Below are positions 1,970 through 13,052 of a stretch of 64,000 nucleotides of DNA, in pieces (the first letter of the stretch is position 1; every line of letters starts with the position of its first letter). Origin of the DNA: Alphaproteobacteria bacterium (GTDB taxonomy: Bacteria > Pseudomonadota > Alphaproteobacteria > CALMVH01); the NCBI GenBank assembly GCA_965199335.1, contig CBDAQZ010000001.1, forward strand, positions 139,051 through 203,050, given 5' to 3'. Below the pieces are notes generated by a model. It saw only the letters and a list, made by a program, of their open reading frames with translations, was not told where the DNA came from and did not search any database. The position numbers were made by a program, and so were the translations under genes.

Positions 1970-2743
1970 ATGGCTGGATTGAAGGGTGCCGACAGGCAAG
2001 TCGTAAAGGATGCCGAGGCGCTGGCCGTGTTCGCCGCGAAATGGGTGACGGCGACGGCGCTGGAAACGCCCGGCACGGTGACCATCAGCCTGTCCGGTGG
2101 ATCGACGCCCAAGCGGCTCTACGAGCTGCTGGCGACGACGCACCTGATCGACTTCCCGTGGAACCGCGTCCACTGGTTCTGGGGCGACGAACGTTATGTC
2201 GGGCCCGAGGACGAGAAGAGCAATTACCACATGACCAACCTGGCGATGCTGTCGAAGGCGCCGATCCCGCCCGGCCATGTGCACCGCGTGCTGACCGAAT
2301 CCGAAACCGTGGAGATCGCCGCCGACCGCTACCAGTCGAACCTGCAGCGCCATTACGGCGCGCGTGTCCTGGACCCGGTGCGGCCGCTGTTCGACATCAT
2401 GCTGCTGGGCCTGGGCGAGGACGCGCACACCGCCTCGCTGTTCCCCGGCAACAAGGCATTGAAGGAAAGGGAAGCATGGGTCGTATCGGTGCCCGACGGC
2501 ACGCCGCCGCCGCGCATCACGCTGACCTTTCCCGCGCTGAACAGCAGCCGCCACACCGTCTTCCTGGTAGCCGGCGAAGCCAAACGCACGCCGCTGGAGC
2601 GCGTCTGGAAAGGCGACCCGTCCGCCCCTTCCGCCCATATCGCGCCGACCGGGCAGCTGCATCTGTTTGTCGATGAGGCGGCGATCGCAACCCTCTCCCC
2701 GATGGGAGAGGGAGGGGCCCGTCGCGTGGCGACGGGAGGGTGA
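1970..2743 (+). CDS. pgl: 6-phosphogluconolactonase; C-terminal tail and stop codon lie within a repeat arm
   Basis: LSGGSTP, FWGDERYV, SNY, LLGLGEDAHTASLFP and RITLT motifs. Confidence 0.95.
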   Translation: MAGLKGADRQVVKDAEALAVFAAKWVTATALETPGTVTISLSGGSTPKRLYELLATTHLIDFPWNRVHWFWGDERYVGPEDEKSNYHMTNLAMLSKAPIPPGHVHRVLTESETVEIAADRYQSNLQRHYGARVLDPVRPLFDIMLLGLGEDAHTASLFPGNKALKEREAWVVSVPDGTPPPRITLTFPALNSSRHTVFLVAGEAKRTPLERVWKGDPSAPSAHIAPTGQLHLFVDEAAIATLSPMGEGGARRVATGG

Positions 2744-2746
2744 GGG
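2690..2746 (+). repeat. Palindromic arm (two hairpins plus GGGTGAGGG), left end of element 1
   Basis: CCCTCTCCC-CGAT-GGGAGAGGG and CCCGTCGC-GTG-GCGACGGG stems read directly. Confidence 0.9.
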
Positions 2747-2753
2747 AAGCCGC

Positions 2754-3146
2754 ATGATGCCGATCGTGCAGGCAAGAACTTTGCGAAAGGAAATGACGCA
2801 AGCGGAGCGAAAGCTCTGGAAGCTTCTGCGTAGCAAGGTATTGGGAAACTGGAAATTTCGCAGGCAGCATCCTATCGGTCAGTACATCGCGGATTTTGTT
2901 TGTGTGCAGGCAAGGCTGATTGTCGAAGTCGATGGCGGGCAGCATAGTCAGAATTCTTATGATGCTGAACGTACCGCCTGGCTGGAGTCTTGCGGTTGGA
3001 ACGTATTGCGTTTCTGGAATAATGAAGTGATGCAAAATGCCGACGGTGTTATTGAAACGATCGGACTGCATTTGAATTCACCCTCACCCTCCCGCTCCTA
3101 CGGAACGGGTCCCTCCCTCTCCCATCGGGAGAGGGTCTCGAAATGA
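2754..3146 (+). CDS. DUF559 / Vsr-like endonuclease domain protein
   Basis: ARxLRxxMTxAE...LW, KFRRQHPIGxYIADF, LIVEVDGGQH, DxxRTxWL, GWxVLRFWN family motifs; GAGGG SD at 2742-2746; visibly lower GC than flanks. Confidence 0.9.
   Translation: MMPIVQARTLRKEMTQAERKLWKLLRSKVLGNWKFRRQHPIGQYIADFVCVQARLIVEVDGGQHSQNSYDAERTAWLESCGWNVLRFWNNEVMQNADGVIETIGLHLNSPSPSRSYGTGPSLSHRERVSK
3081..3136 (-). repeat. Palindromic arm, right end of element 1 (inverted relative to left arm)
   Basis: CCCTCACCC...CCCGCTCC-TAC-GGAACGGG...CCCTCTCCC-ATC-GGGAGAGGGT. Confidence 0.9.
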
Positions 3147-6800: not shown

Positions 6801-6948
6801 GGGCGTGTTCGCCGCCAGCTACAGCATCACCGGCCCCTACGAGAAACCCGACGTCTCGATCAACCCGCTATCGGTGTTCGCGCCCGGCGTGCTGCGCGAC
6901 CTGCTGTTCACGCCATCCGACCCGGAGATGGGGGCGCCGGCTAAATAG
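3841..6948 (+). CDS. YhdP/AsmA-like (DUF3971 plus AsmA_2) envelope protein
   Basis: 1035 aa with N-terminal TM anchor (WRLSRGPVS), YWP...RRWV motif, and C-terminal GTAVPAY-x-N..IPVLGPLL-GG..GVFAASY.I.GP...P.VSINPLS..APG signature. Confidence 0.85.
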   Translation: MKHHLSRKLLLELISLAVVSLVIMAGFVFWRLSRGPVSVDFLRPVVQAQFHDRTDMHLSVAHLRIDAQTWDAPVTVRMEDVDIKNEKKAKLLSIAVAQISVSRRGLFTGSIHPVAFDLDKPAFLLDNAPPEPAQAKGGGPKPDSDTNLRRAHDILDELVDPKPFSRFSGWDHLSVGGGSIALQQPSGQLMLVSDLAARLDRTAVGLKGQLHGVPVGQAQGELIGAIELNRGEKGSVSFHSSAIPLSAFGLLPSLADLQKDTVPVEATLAATFGGVELADARLDVILGKGQIVYQPTIPQPVDIAGGKAQLLYQANPEHAELHGLELDLGGPHLTAEGKADTKGGVMTAAIDAAVYALKLDDFPRYWPQDVSRGGRRWVLSNLSKGVVQKATIHAEATAPRKDPAMLDIAAATGTIAVSGANIHYFGELPPVQDANADIVYDTKSMTIAMTGGHAKDFAIKDGTIVLSGFDAPDQAITIDLDLAGPVASALDIINQPPLGYASKVQIVPGNVGGTAETHLKMAFPLLDSLKVDDLGLVSRSLLHDVLIPNAIGHMTASSINGMLYAGMKGMELTGRASLLDIPAAIDYRQDFAKNGPSIATFSGSLDGRQRDELGIDFPDRLKGPVNLSGKYSSQGKDGTVDIDVDMTPADFNIDEIAYQKPPGKPGSAKLGIKLAGGAITAIDPIAVEAPGFSAGGSAGFDPDTNKLSSLTLDHLRADETDMTITMAPMPEGGSKIDLTGSEFDARKFLHKRREKKTTTAAETTPPVPLEVDVDLATVRTSDTKTLAKVKGQLVLMGRKWHRADFSATADGKDILLSYLPDSNDANPSYTLRASASDAGAAFAGFALTDSIKGGIMTIDGKKAAATEQQPDPPLAGTLALTDFSLINPPGFARLFNLLSVSGFGDAVASSDILFDSLKGKFEIDDAELRVSDGKLVGSAIGLTIAGTADRDAGTLDLHGTAVPAYGANRIINKIPVLGPLLTGGDGQGVFAASYSITGPYEKPDVSINPLSVFAPGVLRDLLFTPSDPEMGAPAK

Positions 6949-6980
6949 ACCTCTCCCATGGGGAGAGGTCTATTTAGCCG
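6938..6980. repeat. Perfect 20-bp-stem palindrome (solo terminal hairpin of the repeat family), probable bidirectional terminator
   Basis: CGGCTAAATAGACCTCTCCC-ATG-GGGAGAGGTCTATTTAGCCG between convergent genes. Confidence 0.85.
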
Positions 6981-7677: not shown

Positions 7678-7691
7678 AACGCGATCCTATC

Positions 7692-7814
7692 ACCTCTCCC
7701 TGTGGGAGAGGTCAGCCATTTCGCAAGAAATGGATGGGTGAGGGGCTAACGGATGGTTCGGCGAGCCCCTCACCCGCCCGGCTATGCCATTCGACCTCTC
7801 CCACGGGGAGAGGT
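7692..7814. repeat. Gene-less MITE/REPIN-like copy: two inward-facing arms around a 16-bp spacer
   Basis: ACCTCTCCC-TGT-GGGAGAGGT..CCATTTC-GCAA-GAAATGG..GGGTGAGGGGCT [16 bp] AGCCCCTCACCC..ACCTCTCCC-ACG-GGGAGAGGT. Confidence 0.85.
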
Positions 7815-7830
7815 CATTTTAGGCATCTAT

Positions 7831-9115: not shown

Positions 9116-10380
9116 CCGAAGATCTCGCGCACTTTTTCCAACGCCGATGCCAGTACGTCGATTTCTTCCTGGGTGTTGTACAGGCCCAGCGAGGCACGGG
9201 CGGTCGCCGCGATGCCCAAGCGGTCCATCAGCGGCTGGGCGCAGTGATGGCCGACGCGTATGGCGACGCTGGCGATGTTGTCGACGACGGTGCCGATATC
9301 GTGCGCGTGAATACCGTCCATGGTGAAGGACACCAGTCCTGCCTTGTCCTTGGCGGTGCCGTAGATCTTCAGACCCGGCACATGCGACAGCCGGGCGGTC
9401 ATGTATTTCAGCAGCCCGTCCTCGTAGTCTGCGACGGCCTGGCGCCCCAGCCCCTCGATGTAATCGATCGCGGCGGCAAGGCCCACGGCCTCGGCGATTG
9501 CGGGGGTGCCGGCTTCGAAACGGCCGGGCGGTTTCTTGAACGTGGTCTTGGCGAAGGTCACGCGCTCGATCATGTCGCCGCCGCCCTGGTAGGGCGACAT
9601 TTTCTCCAGCTGCGCATATTTGCCGTACAGCACGCCGATGCCGGTCGGGCCGTAAAGCTTGTGGCCGGAGAAGACGAAGAAATCACAGCCCAGCGCCTGC
9701 ACGTCGATCGGCATGTGCACGACCGACTGGCAGCCGTCCAGCAGCACGGGGATGTTGTGCGCGTGCGCCAGCTTGACGATCTCGCGTACCGGCATGATCG
9801 TGCCCAGCGCGTTCGACATGTGGCTGACGGCGACCAGCTTGGTGCGCGGACCGATCAGCTTCTCGAACGCCTCCATGTCAAGCATGCCGGTGTCGTCGAT
9901 CGGCGCGACCTTGATCTCGATCCCGCGCTCGGCCTTCAGCAACTGCCACGGCACGATGTTGGCGTGATGCTCCAGCTCGGTCAGCAGCACCTCGTCGCCC
10001 TTGCCCAGGAACTTGCGCCCCCAGCTGGCGGCGACCAAATTGATGGATTCGGTGGCGTTGCGCGTGAACACGATCTCGTCGGCGCTGGCGGCGTTGATGA
10101 AGCGGGCGACCTTGGCGCGCGCCTGCTCGAACAGCTCGGTCGATTTCTGCGACAGGTAGTGAACGCCGCGATGGATGTTGGCGTAGTCGTGGCTCAGCAC
10201 GTTGGTCATCGCGTCCAGCACCGCCTGCGGTTTCTGCGCCGATGCGGCGCTGTCAAGGAACACCAGCGGACGATTGTAGACCTTGCGCGACAGGATCGGG
10301 AAATCGGCGCGCACGCGTTCGACGTCGAACGAATTGTGACCCAGATGCGGGATTTTCTTGGCAGCCATGGCGGTCATCAT
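9112..10380 (-). CDS. sufS: Cysteine desulfurase SufS
   Basis: FLDSAASAQKP, ANIHRG, EHHANIVPW, SGHKLYGPTGIG and RVGHHCAQPLM; ATGA overlap with sufD stop. Confidence 0.96.
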   Translation of the reverse strand: MMTAMAAKKIPHLGHNSFDVERVRADFPILSRKVYNRPLVFLDSAASAQKPQAVLDAMTNVLSHDYANIHRGVHYLSQKSTELFEQARAKVARFINAASADEIVFTRNATESINLVAASWGRKFLGKGDEVLLTELEHHANIVPWQLLKAERGIEIKVAPIDDTGMLDMEAFEKLIGPRTKLVAVSHMSNALGTIMPVREIVKLAHAHNIPVLLDGCQSVVHMPIDVQALGCDFFVFSGHKLYGPTGIGVLYGKYAQLEKMSPYQGGGDMIERVTFAKTTFKKPPGRFEAGTPAIAEAVGLAAAIDYIEGLGRQAVADYEDGLLKYMTARLSHVPGLKIYGTAKDKAGLVSFTMDGIHAHDIGTVVDNIASVAIRVGHHCAQPLMDRLGIAATARASLGLYNTQEEIDVLASALEKVREIFG

Positions 10381-11642
10381 CCCTCTCCCTTTACACCCAG
10401 AACAGACGCCGCATGCGCCCGGAAGGCATCGCGTACCGTTTCGTTTTCGACCAGGTCGATGCTGGACCCGATGAAGGCCCCGATCAGCATCTGCCGCGCC
10501 TCGTCGTGCGGGATGCCGCGGCTGCGCAAATAGAACAGCGCATCCTCGTCCAGCCGGCCCGATGTCGCGCCATGACTGCATTTGACGTCGTCGGCATAGA
10601 TTTCAAGTTCCGGCTTGGCATTTACTTCGGCGGTGGACGACAGCATCAACGACTGGTTCAGCTGGAACCCATCGGTTTTCTGCGCGTCCTGAGCGACGAA
10701 AATCTTGCCCTGGAACACGCTGCGCGACGTACCGTCCATGACATGGCGATAGGTCTCGCGGCTGCGGCAGTTGGGATACATGTGCCGTATCTCGGTCGTG
10801 GTATCCGCGTGCGAATTACCAGATAGAACGTGCGCGCCATTCAGGCGGACCTCGCTATCGGGGCACGGCATGTCGACCCTGACCTGATGCCGCGACAATC
10901 TGCCGCCCGTGGTCAGGCTGAAGGTATCGTACAGCGACTTATGCTCGACCTGGACGGCGCTTGTCGCAAGAACGATTGCCTCCGGTCCAACTTGCTGCAG
11001 CCTGTAATGGTTCAGGGTGGCACCGTCCGAAATTTTGATCTCGCTGGCAATCGTCCCAACAAAGCTACCGGTTCCGACATGCCGCTCGATCAGGCACATC
11101 GTTGTGTTCGGATTGATCGAGACGTCCAGCTTCGCATGCCAATCGGCCTTACCGGAACTGACAAAGCAGATTTCGATCGGTGTCTCGACAGTCTTGTCGA
11201 AGGGAGAAATGATCCGCAAGCCATCGACAAACAATGCCGTATTGAGGGCACCGATCGATTGCTCTTCGAGACCGAAATTGCCGACCCAGTTCTTATTCAC
11301 GCCAGCCTGGCTATCTCCCGCCATGTCCCAGATGCCAACGTCGCTGGAAATAACCGGTGCCAGATCGGAGTGTTCGAGGCTGTAAACACCATCGATGAAA
11401 ACGGCGCGCGCAGACCCGGGCACAAGCGGATCGGGGATGGTCGCTGGACCGGATCCATCGATCGAATCCCTGGATAGCAGAGGGATGAGAACCGGCGCCA
11501 GATTGGTATATTTCCAGCTTTCGTTGCGCGGCGTCGGTAGGCCGGTTTCACGATACGTGCTGGCGGCTTTCTGGCGCAGCTCCGTCAGCCATGCCGGGCT
11601 TTCCGGCAGGTGTTCGAGCTGATCGGCGAAGGGCAGGGTCAT
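10377..11642 (-). CDS. sufD: Fe-S assembly protein SufD
   Basis: GLPT.RNESWKYT, FQGKIFV..DAQKTDG, KPELEIYADDVKCSHGAT and FYLRSRGI motifs. Confidence 0.95.
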   Translation of the reverse strand: MTLPFADQLEHLPESPAWLTELRQKAASTYRETGLPTPRNESWKYTNLAPVLIPLLSRDSIDGSGPATIPDPLVPGSARAVFIDGVYSLEHSDLAPVISSDVGIWDMAGDSQAGVNKNWVGNFGLEEQSIGALNTALFVDGLRIISPFDKTVETPIEICFVSSGKADWHAKLDVSINPNTTMCLIERHVGTGSFVGTIASEIKISDGATLNHYRLQQVGPEAIVLATSAVQVEHKSLYDTFSLTTGGRLSRHQVRVDMPCPDSEVRLNGAHVLSGNSHADTTTEIRHMYPNCRSRETYRHVMDGTSRSVFQGKIFVAQDAQKTDGFQLNQSLMLSSTAEVNAKPELEIYADDVKCSHGATSGRLDEDALFYLRSRGIPHDEARQMLIGAFIGSSIDLVENETVRDAFRAHAASVLGVKGEG

Positions 11643-12174
11643 GATCTTTTCCCTCCTTGCAGCGGCACACCCTCACCCCAGCCCTCTCCCATCAGGGAGA
11701 GGGAGCCGTTCGAATTTACCTCTCCCTCATGGGAGAGGTCGGCGCCCGCAGGGCGTCGGGTGAGGGTGTGCTGGCGATGCAGCGAAGCCTTTTGCAAATG
11801 ACGCAGCAATGTTTCCGCAGTGCCATTCATGTTCTGTAAAACGTCATTGTTCCAGAAGCGGATGACAGTCCAGCCGCGATCTTCAAGCCAGCGCGTACGA
11901 TTTATGTCGTTCTGGTTTTCACAATGCTGACCGCCATCGATCTCCACGATCAGCAAAACTTCGGCGCATGCGAAGTCGGCGACGTAGGGGCCGACCGGGT
12001 GCTGCCGGCGGAATTTCCAGCCGGTGAAAGCTTCGCCGCGGATGGTTCTCCAGAATTTGCGTTCGGCATCGGTCATGTTTGTGCGAAGTTTGCGCGCACG
12101 CTCGATGCGGGTAGAGACACCCTCACCCCAGCCCTCTCCCATGAGGGAGAGGGAGCTATTTTGCAGCTCGGTCA

Positions 12175-12178
<4 letters not shown>
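11639..12178 (-). CDS. DUF559 / Vsr-like endonuclease domain protein with repeat-encoded termini
   Basis: ARKLRTNMTDAE, KFRRQHPVGPYVADF, IVEIDGGQH and GWTVIRFWNN; peptide SLSLMGEGWGEGV occurs at both ends; ATGA overlaps with sufC stop and sufD start. Confidence 0.88.
11667..12156 (-). mobile_element. Putative DUF559 cassette (element 2) with three palindromic arms, inside the suf operon
   Basis: Arms 12117-12156 and 11718-11769 face inward around the nuclease core; extra arm 11667-11706 is a 39/40 direct repeat of 12117-12156. Mobility is inferred. Confidence 0.7.
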
Positions 12179-12930
<752 letters not shown>

Positions 12931-12950
12931 TTGTGGTTCTTTTTCAAATT

Positions 12951-13034
12951 GTCATTCCGGTGCATGGCGCCGGAATCTACGGGCAGTTCGATACGGTTAC
13001 AGGGTTTGGATTCCGGTCATTCGTCCGGAATGAC
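12951..13034. repeat. Second palindrome family (CIR/RPE-like) with two GANTC sites
   Basis: GTCATTCCGG-N9-CCGGAATC ... GATTCCGG-N8-CCGGAATGAC; terminal inverted 10-mers; GAATC 12973-12977 and GATTC 13009-13013. Confidence 0.8.
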
Positions 13035-13052
13035 TTGGCAGATTTTGCGTCA

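Follow-up and report, generated by a model that had tools for sequence, protein, structure and literature searches.

A predicted DUF559 nuclease gene with BoxC arms bridges sufC and sufD in one open reading frame

The RAYT (TnpA-REP) systems pair an HUH/Y1 transposase with REP-BIME or REPIN arrays, which are marked by a GTAG tag. The mycobacterial MIRUs, reportedly the subject of work by Supply and colleagues in 1997, are another type of repeat. As described in the accessible part of PMC3184786, MIRUs are operon-internal repeats of 40-100 bp, in which an ORF is part of the unit and overlaps both neighbours. The Ssn nucleases of the GIY-YIG family, for which cleavage has been demonstrated, occur with NTS/SRM (CGTC-tagged REP) repeats, which flank 42% of the homologues on both sides (PMC11893778); the portion of that paper available to us does not refer to Vsr, DUF559 or BoxC. 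The BoxC element, also termed PIT or TM_ECO, is an intrastrand-triplex repeat (Holder et al., 2015; PMC4666352). According to the accessible part of that account, BoxC has been familiar from E. coli since the 1990s and has not been assigned a mobility gene; none was ever found near the motif, and ycjD goes unmentioned.

Here we report an insert between sufC and sufD, located in a 64-kb stretch of DNA (the window), that consists of a DUF559 gene and its BoxC arms. In the way it works it resembles a MIRU, and in its organization an Ssn-SRM or RAYT-REP unit, but it is a member of none of these. As far as the parts of the cited papers available to us describe these systems, the comparison runs as follows: with the MIRUs the insert shares its position within an operon and ORF ends overlapping both flanking genes, but it is a 536-bp insert with a nuclease, and the bridges reported below are site-specific, in differing frames and derived from two unrelated repeat families; with Ssn-SRM it shares a small solitary nuclease gene bordered by a hairpin repeat that is also dispersed in the genome (on both sides in 54 of 80 DUF559 loci), whereas the nuclease family is DUF559, the repeat is different and the nuclease is here a predicted one; with BoxC/TM_ECO it shares the exact consensus in two arms, inverted pairs of two arm types and an intergenic location, but here a DUF559 gene lies between the arms, which are themselves read as part of an ORF. 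The RAYT-REP systems resemble it in placing one gene between inverted arms, in carrying additional alternating arms and in having non-autonomous two-arm copies; unlike them, it encodes a PF04480 protein, with neither an HUH/Y1 transposase nor the GTAG tag. It differs from classical IS elements and MITEs in that there is no transposase match and no target-site duplication of constant length seen by eye. E. coli YcjD and the protein of PDB 3hrl belong to the same DUF559 family, and ycjD has a TM_ECO repeat downstream, but ycjD is not read through to fabI. Two testable leads follow from the insert: DUF559 as a BoxC nuclease, and translational bridging as a general principle for repeats within coupled operons.

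The genes at this junction lie on the minus strand: sufC (12175..12930), a bridging ORF of 179 codons (11639..12178) and sufD (10377..11642). The bridging ORF is composed of an arm-derived N-terminus, a DUF559 core and an arm-derived C-terminus, and sufC, sufD and DUF559 are each recognized by Pfam. The window bears out the overlaps described by an earlier sequence-only reading: ATGA at 12175-12178 is common to the sufC stop and the ORF start (TGATG for the second Met), and ATGA at 11639-11642 to the ORF stop and the sufD start. A strong SD-like AAGGAGG for sufD lies within the bridging ORF (11652..11658, minus strand; anti-SD duplex -11.9 kcal/mol), and a strong SD-like GGAGG is found in the last sufC codons (anti-SD duplex -9.5 kcal/mol). 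Starts are predictions from a simple gene caller plus homology. Initiation at Met13 is considered unlikely, this codon having no SD and sitting within a hairpin, and so is initiation at Met35, which too is without an SD and whose use would lose the conserved L31/R32. ATG, GTG and TTG codons and an SD are absent between arm 1 and codon 35; with nothing to start from between arm 1 and Met35, which costs conserved residues, translation is predicted to begin at Met1 or Met2. A contig of run X1, possibly from the source sample, matches 10900-12415 with zero differences; hence, simple misassembly is not the explanation. A structured RNA gene was also considered and rejected: Rfam gives nothing above threshold at the insert, the only match being sub-threshold.

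As that reading had stated, the ORF passes in frame through three arms and encodes SLSLMGEGWGEGV twice. Arm 1 (12117..12156, minus strand) is a short BoxC/TM_ECO arm consisting of a hairpin and a GGGTGAGGG tail; arm 2 (about 11716..11772, plus strand) is a long inverted arm with a hairpin, a second small hairpin and a tail, and is read through by the ORF; arm 3 (11667..11706, minus strand) is a direct duplicate of arm 1. Both arms 1 and 3 strictly fit the published TM_ECO consensus, CCCTCNCCC N3-6 GGGNGAGGG N3 GGGNGAGGG. They are indeed 39/40 identical direct repeats 450 bp apart, and their lone mismatch is synonymous in the bridging frame. The divisibility of this spacing by 3, to which attention had been drawn, is correct but is not independent evidence, since it follows from both arms lying in one reading frame. 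Arms 2 and 3 pair tail-to-tail, forming a structure far stabler than shuffles (z -7.2 and -8.1). The long arm (11716-11767) also gives a weak match to Rfam whalefall-1, with 24.6 bits against a gathering cut-off of 37; the whalefall-1 RNA motif may itself be a BoxC long arm.

Arms 1 and 3 differ by 1 edit and every other genomic copy is at least 4 edits away, which points to a local duplication and makes two independent insertions unlikely. The earlier alternative, that the cassette entered a pre-existing arm and duplicated it, fits such a local duplicate; gene conversion acting locally may also account for the likeness. In 12 of 80 relatives, DUF559 is spanned by near-identical direct repeats of 30-109 bp, whose spacings modulo 3 are distributed 3/3/6. 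Hence, the duplicated-arm architecture recurs without a preference for in-frame spacing. The order left flank-arm-DUF559-arm 2-linker-arm-right flank would be expected if a circle had entered a resident arm by a single crossover, or if rolling-circle overrun had taken place. A 7-bp direct repeat, GCTGCAA, with copies 504 bp apart, was tried as a target duplication and rejected, the right copy resembling the inner flank of a sister repeat. By eye, the other repeat copies of this genome show no target-site duplication of constant length, and neither a general target-site duplication nor a circle was seen.

The DUF559 core (11795..12106, minus strand; residues 25-128) is a Vsr-like PD-(D/E)XK domain that matches PF04480 with E=3.5e-38 and 130.3 bits against a cut-off of 20.6, over profile positions 4-108 of 109. 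All 28 columns invariant across 22 homologues are present, including ADF, E.DGGQH and RFWN, whose residues are presumably catalytic by analogy with Vsr. The only solved DUF559 relative found is PDB 3hrl, an 'endonuclease-like protein'. Apart from DUF559, the profiles match the bridging ORF only with a sub-threshold MTES_1575: the Pfam search found no GIY-YIG nuclease domain, and the Pfam and NCBIfam profiles no HUH Y1 or other transposase. An anti-phage defence system was rejected, as PADLOC matched no system with partner genes and returned one weak partial match (E=4e-4, 65 residues of a 1550-position model). A plasmid-borne element was likewise rejected, with 46 of 72,556 records matching and the 15 matches listed being replicons of 0.6-4.9 Mb.

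The arms belong to a known dispersed family, BoxC, a point absent from the earlier reading, as is the generality of bridging described below. They match E. coli intergenic repeats at ~92% in 4230 of 5426 genomes. The host of the genome analysed here (G000) is likely an alphaproteobacterium, judging from the closest named matches to its DUF559. This genome has 52 BoxC-type hairpins at 34 loci, 1 of them within a called gene; they are dispersed, intergenic and often arranged as inverted pairs. Its three DUF559 genes are each flanked by arms and each finish in an ATGA overlap with the next gene. The second cassette (2676..3146, plus strand) lies between rpiA, whose start overlaps the DUF559 stop, and what we take to be pgl, which reads into the left arm and thereby gains an arm-encoded C-terminus; in the sister species (G001), whose genome gives no DUF559 match, these two genes overlap directly by ATGA, without a cassette. 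The third (L231; G000:C1:507554-508000) lies between a presumed topA and rnr, its stop overlapping the rnr start. Across 14 nuclease-free two-hairpin loci of this genome, the best arm score goes to the present cassette in 8, the third in 5 and the first in 1, some of the margins being small. Such a pairing is not confined to this genome: at 80 DUF559 loci from GTDB genomes, BoxC-like arms precede the gene in 69, follow it in 63 and do both in 54, against 1/69 and 0/69 in control windows of the same loci. The genes adjoining DUF559 downstream are very diverse, and many are unrelated (68/76 scanned). E. coli ycjD, for which our literature searches found no function, has TM_ECO downstream. The association of DUF559 with BoxC is thus observed directly; cutting of BoxC by DUF559 is a proposed activity. 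Searches of the open literature found neither this pairing nor repeat bridging in print, and the part of PMC3733652 available to us mentions none of Vsr, DUF559 or GIY.

We compared repeat-bearing co-directional junctions across G000, G001 and a further relative in the same family (G002), excluding 6 non-syntenic and 2 unfetched junctions of G000 and those loci of G001 and G002 that lack adjacent orthologues (among them L196). Where the junction is overlapped in the repeat-free relative, the inserted repeat is bridged by one ORF in 7 of 12 cases, against 1 of 17 elsewhere, many of the latter junctions carrying repeats in both genomes and hence possibly overlapped ancestrally. The bridged junctions are, in G000, sufC-sufD, dnaB-alr, livG-livF and DUF484-xerC (with zero gap to a TTG start) and, in G001, sufC-sufD, sufU-sufT and L194; the unbridged ones are gpsA-EVE in G000, topA-rnr and DUF484-xerC in G001, and the two other G000 DUF559 cassettes, which have the ATGA overlap with the next start and a gap or relay on the left. 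In this set the identities of alr, livF, xerC, rnr, sufU, sufT and rpiA were checked by NCBIfam, and dnaB, livG, topA, gpsA, pgl, EVE and DUF484 are names we assume from the sequence. The single strictly bridged case among junctions not overlapped in the relative is L221, with a TTG start; L195, bridged from a retained start 11 nt past the stop, was scored as unbridged. At sufC-sufD itself, G001 carries an unrelated GTCAT-type repeat, bridged by an ORF of 57 codons that begins in a TGATG overlap and ends in an ATGA overlap, and G002 has a direct overlap, as do 47 of the 95 sufC-sufD junctions that we examined (106 loci, 11 of them without sufD in reach). At sufU-sufT of G001 a nuclease-free BoxC repeat is bridged by 50 codons, and the two genes overlap directly in G000.

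A part of this could arise by chance, as 16 of 60 frames (~27%) are open across repeat spacers, which gives a chance of ~0.09-0.12 for a bridge given both overlaps. Leaving out the sufC-sufD locus of G000, 6/11 junctions are bridged (P=2e-4 to 7e-4); if the zero-gap TTG case is dropped as well, 5/11 are (P=2e-3 to 5e-3). Genome-wide most repeats are unbridged, the bridged counts being 2/19 for BoxC, 2/37 for GTCAT and 12/530 for repeat-free junctions. The bridging peptides come from two unrelated repeat families, lie in differing frames and have no common sequence; this argues that the open frame is kept and not the peptide, and a functional repeat peptide was rejected on the same ground. On the downstream side, 13 of 50 loci have the DUF559 stop overlapping the start of the following gene, or 10 of 32 when one is taken per neighbour family, against 3 and 2 overlaps in the other two frames (P=0.009). 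On the upstream side, in-frame overlap by ATG or GTG was found in 0 of 49 DUF559 relatives; the coupling to sufC is therefore unusual and is probably a relic of the former sufD start.

An independent view comes from two pattern scans of 401 genomes of the class for hairpins near TGATG or CATGA, with the frame unconstrained. These gave 60 loci, of which 55 were kept after leaving out 4 from G000 and G001 and 1 from an unpublished genome. Co-directional junctions account for 34 of the 55; a start that overlaps the stop of the preceding gene is present in 13, and an overlap context on both sides in 9. The flanking genes include gap-pgk, ABC-permease, gatC-gatA, ileS-lspA and DUF7064-APH pairs (Pfam matches for 15 of 18). 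Six of the 9 double-overlap junctions are bridged, against ~10% expected: 4 were flagged by the script and two, L293 (at a locus edge) and L295 (a small glyoxalase gene), were added by hand. For at least 5 of 9, P = 5e-4 to 2e-3. A further bridge-like case, L319, finishes in a -8 overlap. Small as the samples are, these comparisons indicate that the double overlap at repeat insertions is not chance, and the proposal that coupling was kept on both sides is upheld as non-random by both the family comparison and the class sample.

Our preferred explanation, which we consider somewhat probable, is that a mobile cassette of BoxC arms and nuclease entered sufC-sufD and duplicated the arm already resident there, and that the open frame was kept by selection for ribosome hand-over to sufD. 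The ancestral sufC and sufD would have overlapped stop-to-start, as they do in relatives. A repeat would then have inserted beside the start codon, with the old start remaining on the left and the start on the right being either a copy or a new one; alleles would have survived only if the frame between the two starts was open. Subsequently, an arm-DUF559-arm unit may have entered the resident arm through a single crossover of a circle or rolling-circle overrun, yielding arm1-DUF559-arm2-arm1', an arrangement that would be tolerated because 450 bp preserves the frame. Ribosomes finishing sufC would reinitiate, make the nuclease, open the hairpins and reinitiate at sufD; the nuclease would lack a separate start codon upstream of its conserved first helix, and the repeat-encoded peptides would be by-products. 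As a candidate role, DUF559 may recognize and nick BoxC arms, and would thus be the likely spreader of nuclease-free BoxC repeats. Certain observations stand against this account, besides the mostly unbridged repeats genome-wide and the rarity of upstream in-frame overlap among DUF559 relatives: 5 of the 12 overlapped junctions and 3 of the 9 in the class sample are without a single bridge, and, as sufD owns a strong SD, coupling may be unnecessary.

The rival that survives best, although we regard it as unlikely, is a mechanical insertion of the MIRU type, in which the element targets ATGA or TGATG overlaps and duplicates them, so that selection need act on nothing but the frame, the two overlaps being supplied by the insertion itself. 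The 5-bp CATGA present at both insert ends (11639-11643 and 12175-12179), with ATGACC also at each, may be the trace of such a process; the right flank in G001 resembles the sufC end, and MIRUs are described with tetranucleotide direct repeats in the accessible part of PMC3184786. However, selection on frame would still be required, the inserts belong to two unrelated families with differing frames, the right start is unlike that of the relative at L194, L195 and sufU-sufT of G001, 15-30 nt of non-repeat flank lie between repeat and overlap, and the majority of repeats are at non-overlapped sites. Slightly less credible still is a neutral coincidence, whereby the old sufD start was left behind, the GC-rich arms are poor in stops, and open frames end at the TGA in the sufD ATGA. 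The frequency of open frames in repeat spacers, the SD of sufD itself and the -4 overlap being the commonest spacing in G000 (251/1610) agree with it, whereas the ~0.09-0.12 expected per junction falls well short of the 6/11 and 6/9 observed in separate samples, and two unrelated repeats at sufC-sufD are both bridged.

Reversible excision, by which the direct repeats would serve as an on/off switch, the nuclease leaving as a circle and a 29-codon coupling peptide remaining, appears very improbable: in-silico deletion between the arms does give an open 29-codon frame with both overlaps kept, as the sequence-only reading had foreseen, and direct repeats cross DUF559 in a portion of the relatives, but just 3 of those 12 have them in frame, a single-arm allele is present in 0 of the 95 sufC-sufD junctions, and the contigs of five sequencing runs, which drop rare variants and hence weigh little, contain no 450-bp joint, such that neither a designed nor an observed excision is indicated. 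In run X3 (67% read) the sufD contig leaves the fit at 11643 with 7 letters over and the core has little cover, so its gaps are uninformative; run X5 contains a 94% relative that diverges past the sufC stop; and skips of 373-390 bases in the runs have sides of <30 letters and probably come from two-arm repeats of other organisms. No close empty allele of the insert was found among family relatives, metagenomes and the 95 junctions: the family holds G001 and G002 only, and a metagenome scan (7/64 parts) gave nothing above 78% SufC identity.

Beyond the sufC-sufD cassette, we tentatively advance a wider proposal, for which we claim less confidence: DUF559 may be the missing BoxC mobilizer, a third repeat-cutting nuclease family beside RAYT and Ssn, acting via arm-DUF559-arm circles that enter resident BoxC arms; and across the class, hairpin repeats may persist in coupled operons only as 'translational bridges', which would be the ribosome-level equivalent of self-splicing and would steadily supply new translated peptides. 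The DUF559 link, E. coli ycjD included, makes the question of BoxC mobility directly testable, with ycjD-fabI of E. coli K-12 (L271) as a ready laboratory system, and may lead to a novel family of small nucleases specific for structure or sequence. A rule of bridging would explain in general terms why strong hairpins are tolerated in core operons (suf, gap-pgk, gatCA and ileS-lspA), and it predicts many unannotated translated ORFs of 40-65 codons. The sufC-sufD cassette would illustrate one route by which a selfish gene gains expression, namely by replacing a coupling site.

Several further repeats and small ORFs were encountered. In E. coli K-12, ycjD runs into a degenerate arm, which is followed by a canonical TM_ECO/BoxC. 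Within the window, a lone perfect BoxC hairpin lies between convergent genes (6948-6970), a nuclease-free two-arm BoxC repeat downstream of sufA (7690-7815), and a two-arm repeat of the GTCAT type (CGTC/SRM-like) between sufB and sufC (12940-13040). The last of these is unbridged, sufB and sufC being uncoupled in both relatives too; an ORF of 18-19 codons begins at the sufB stop and terminates within it. Elsewhere in this genome, a two-arm BoxC repeat is apparently translated in frame inside a called gene of 338 codons (G000:C4:624074-624168). At atpG-atpD, small and mutually unrelated ORFs coupled by ATGA/GTGA occur in G001 (L196) and G000 (G000:C4:463545-463791), and in the former a 54-codon BoxC bridge lies upstream of the doubtful small ORF. 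A metagenome contig (L043) has a small coiled-coil-like ORF between sufC and sufD, in this case without a repeat match.
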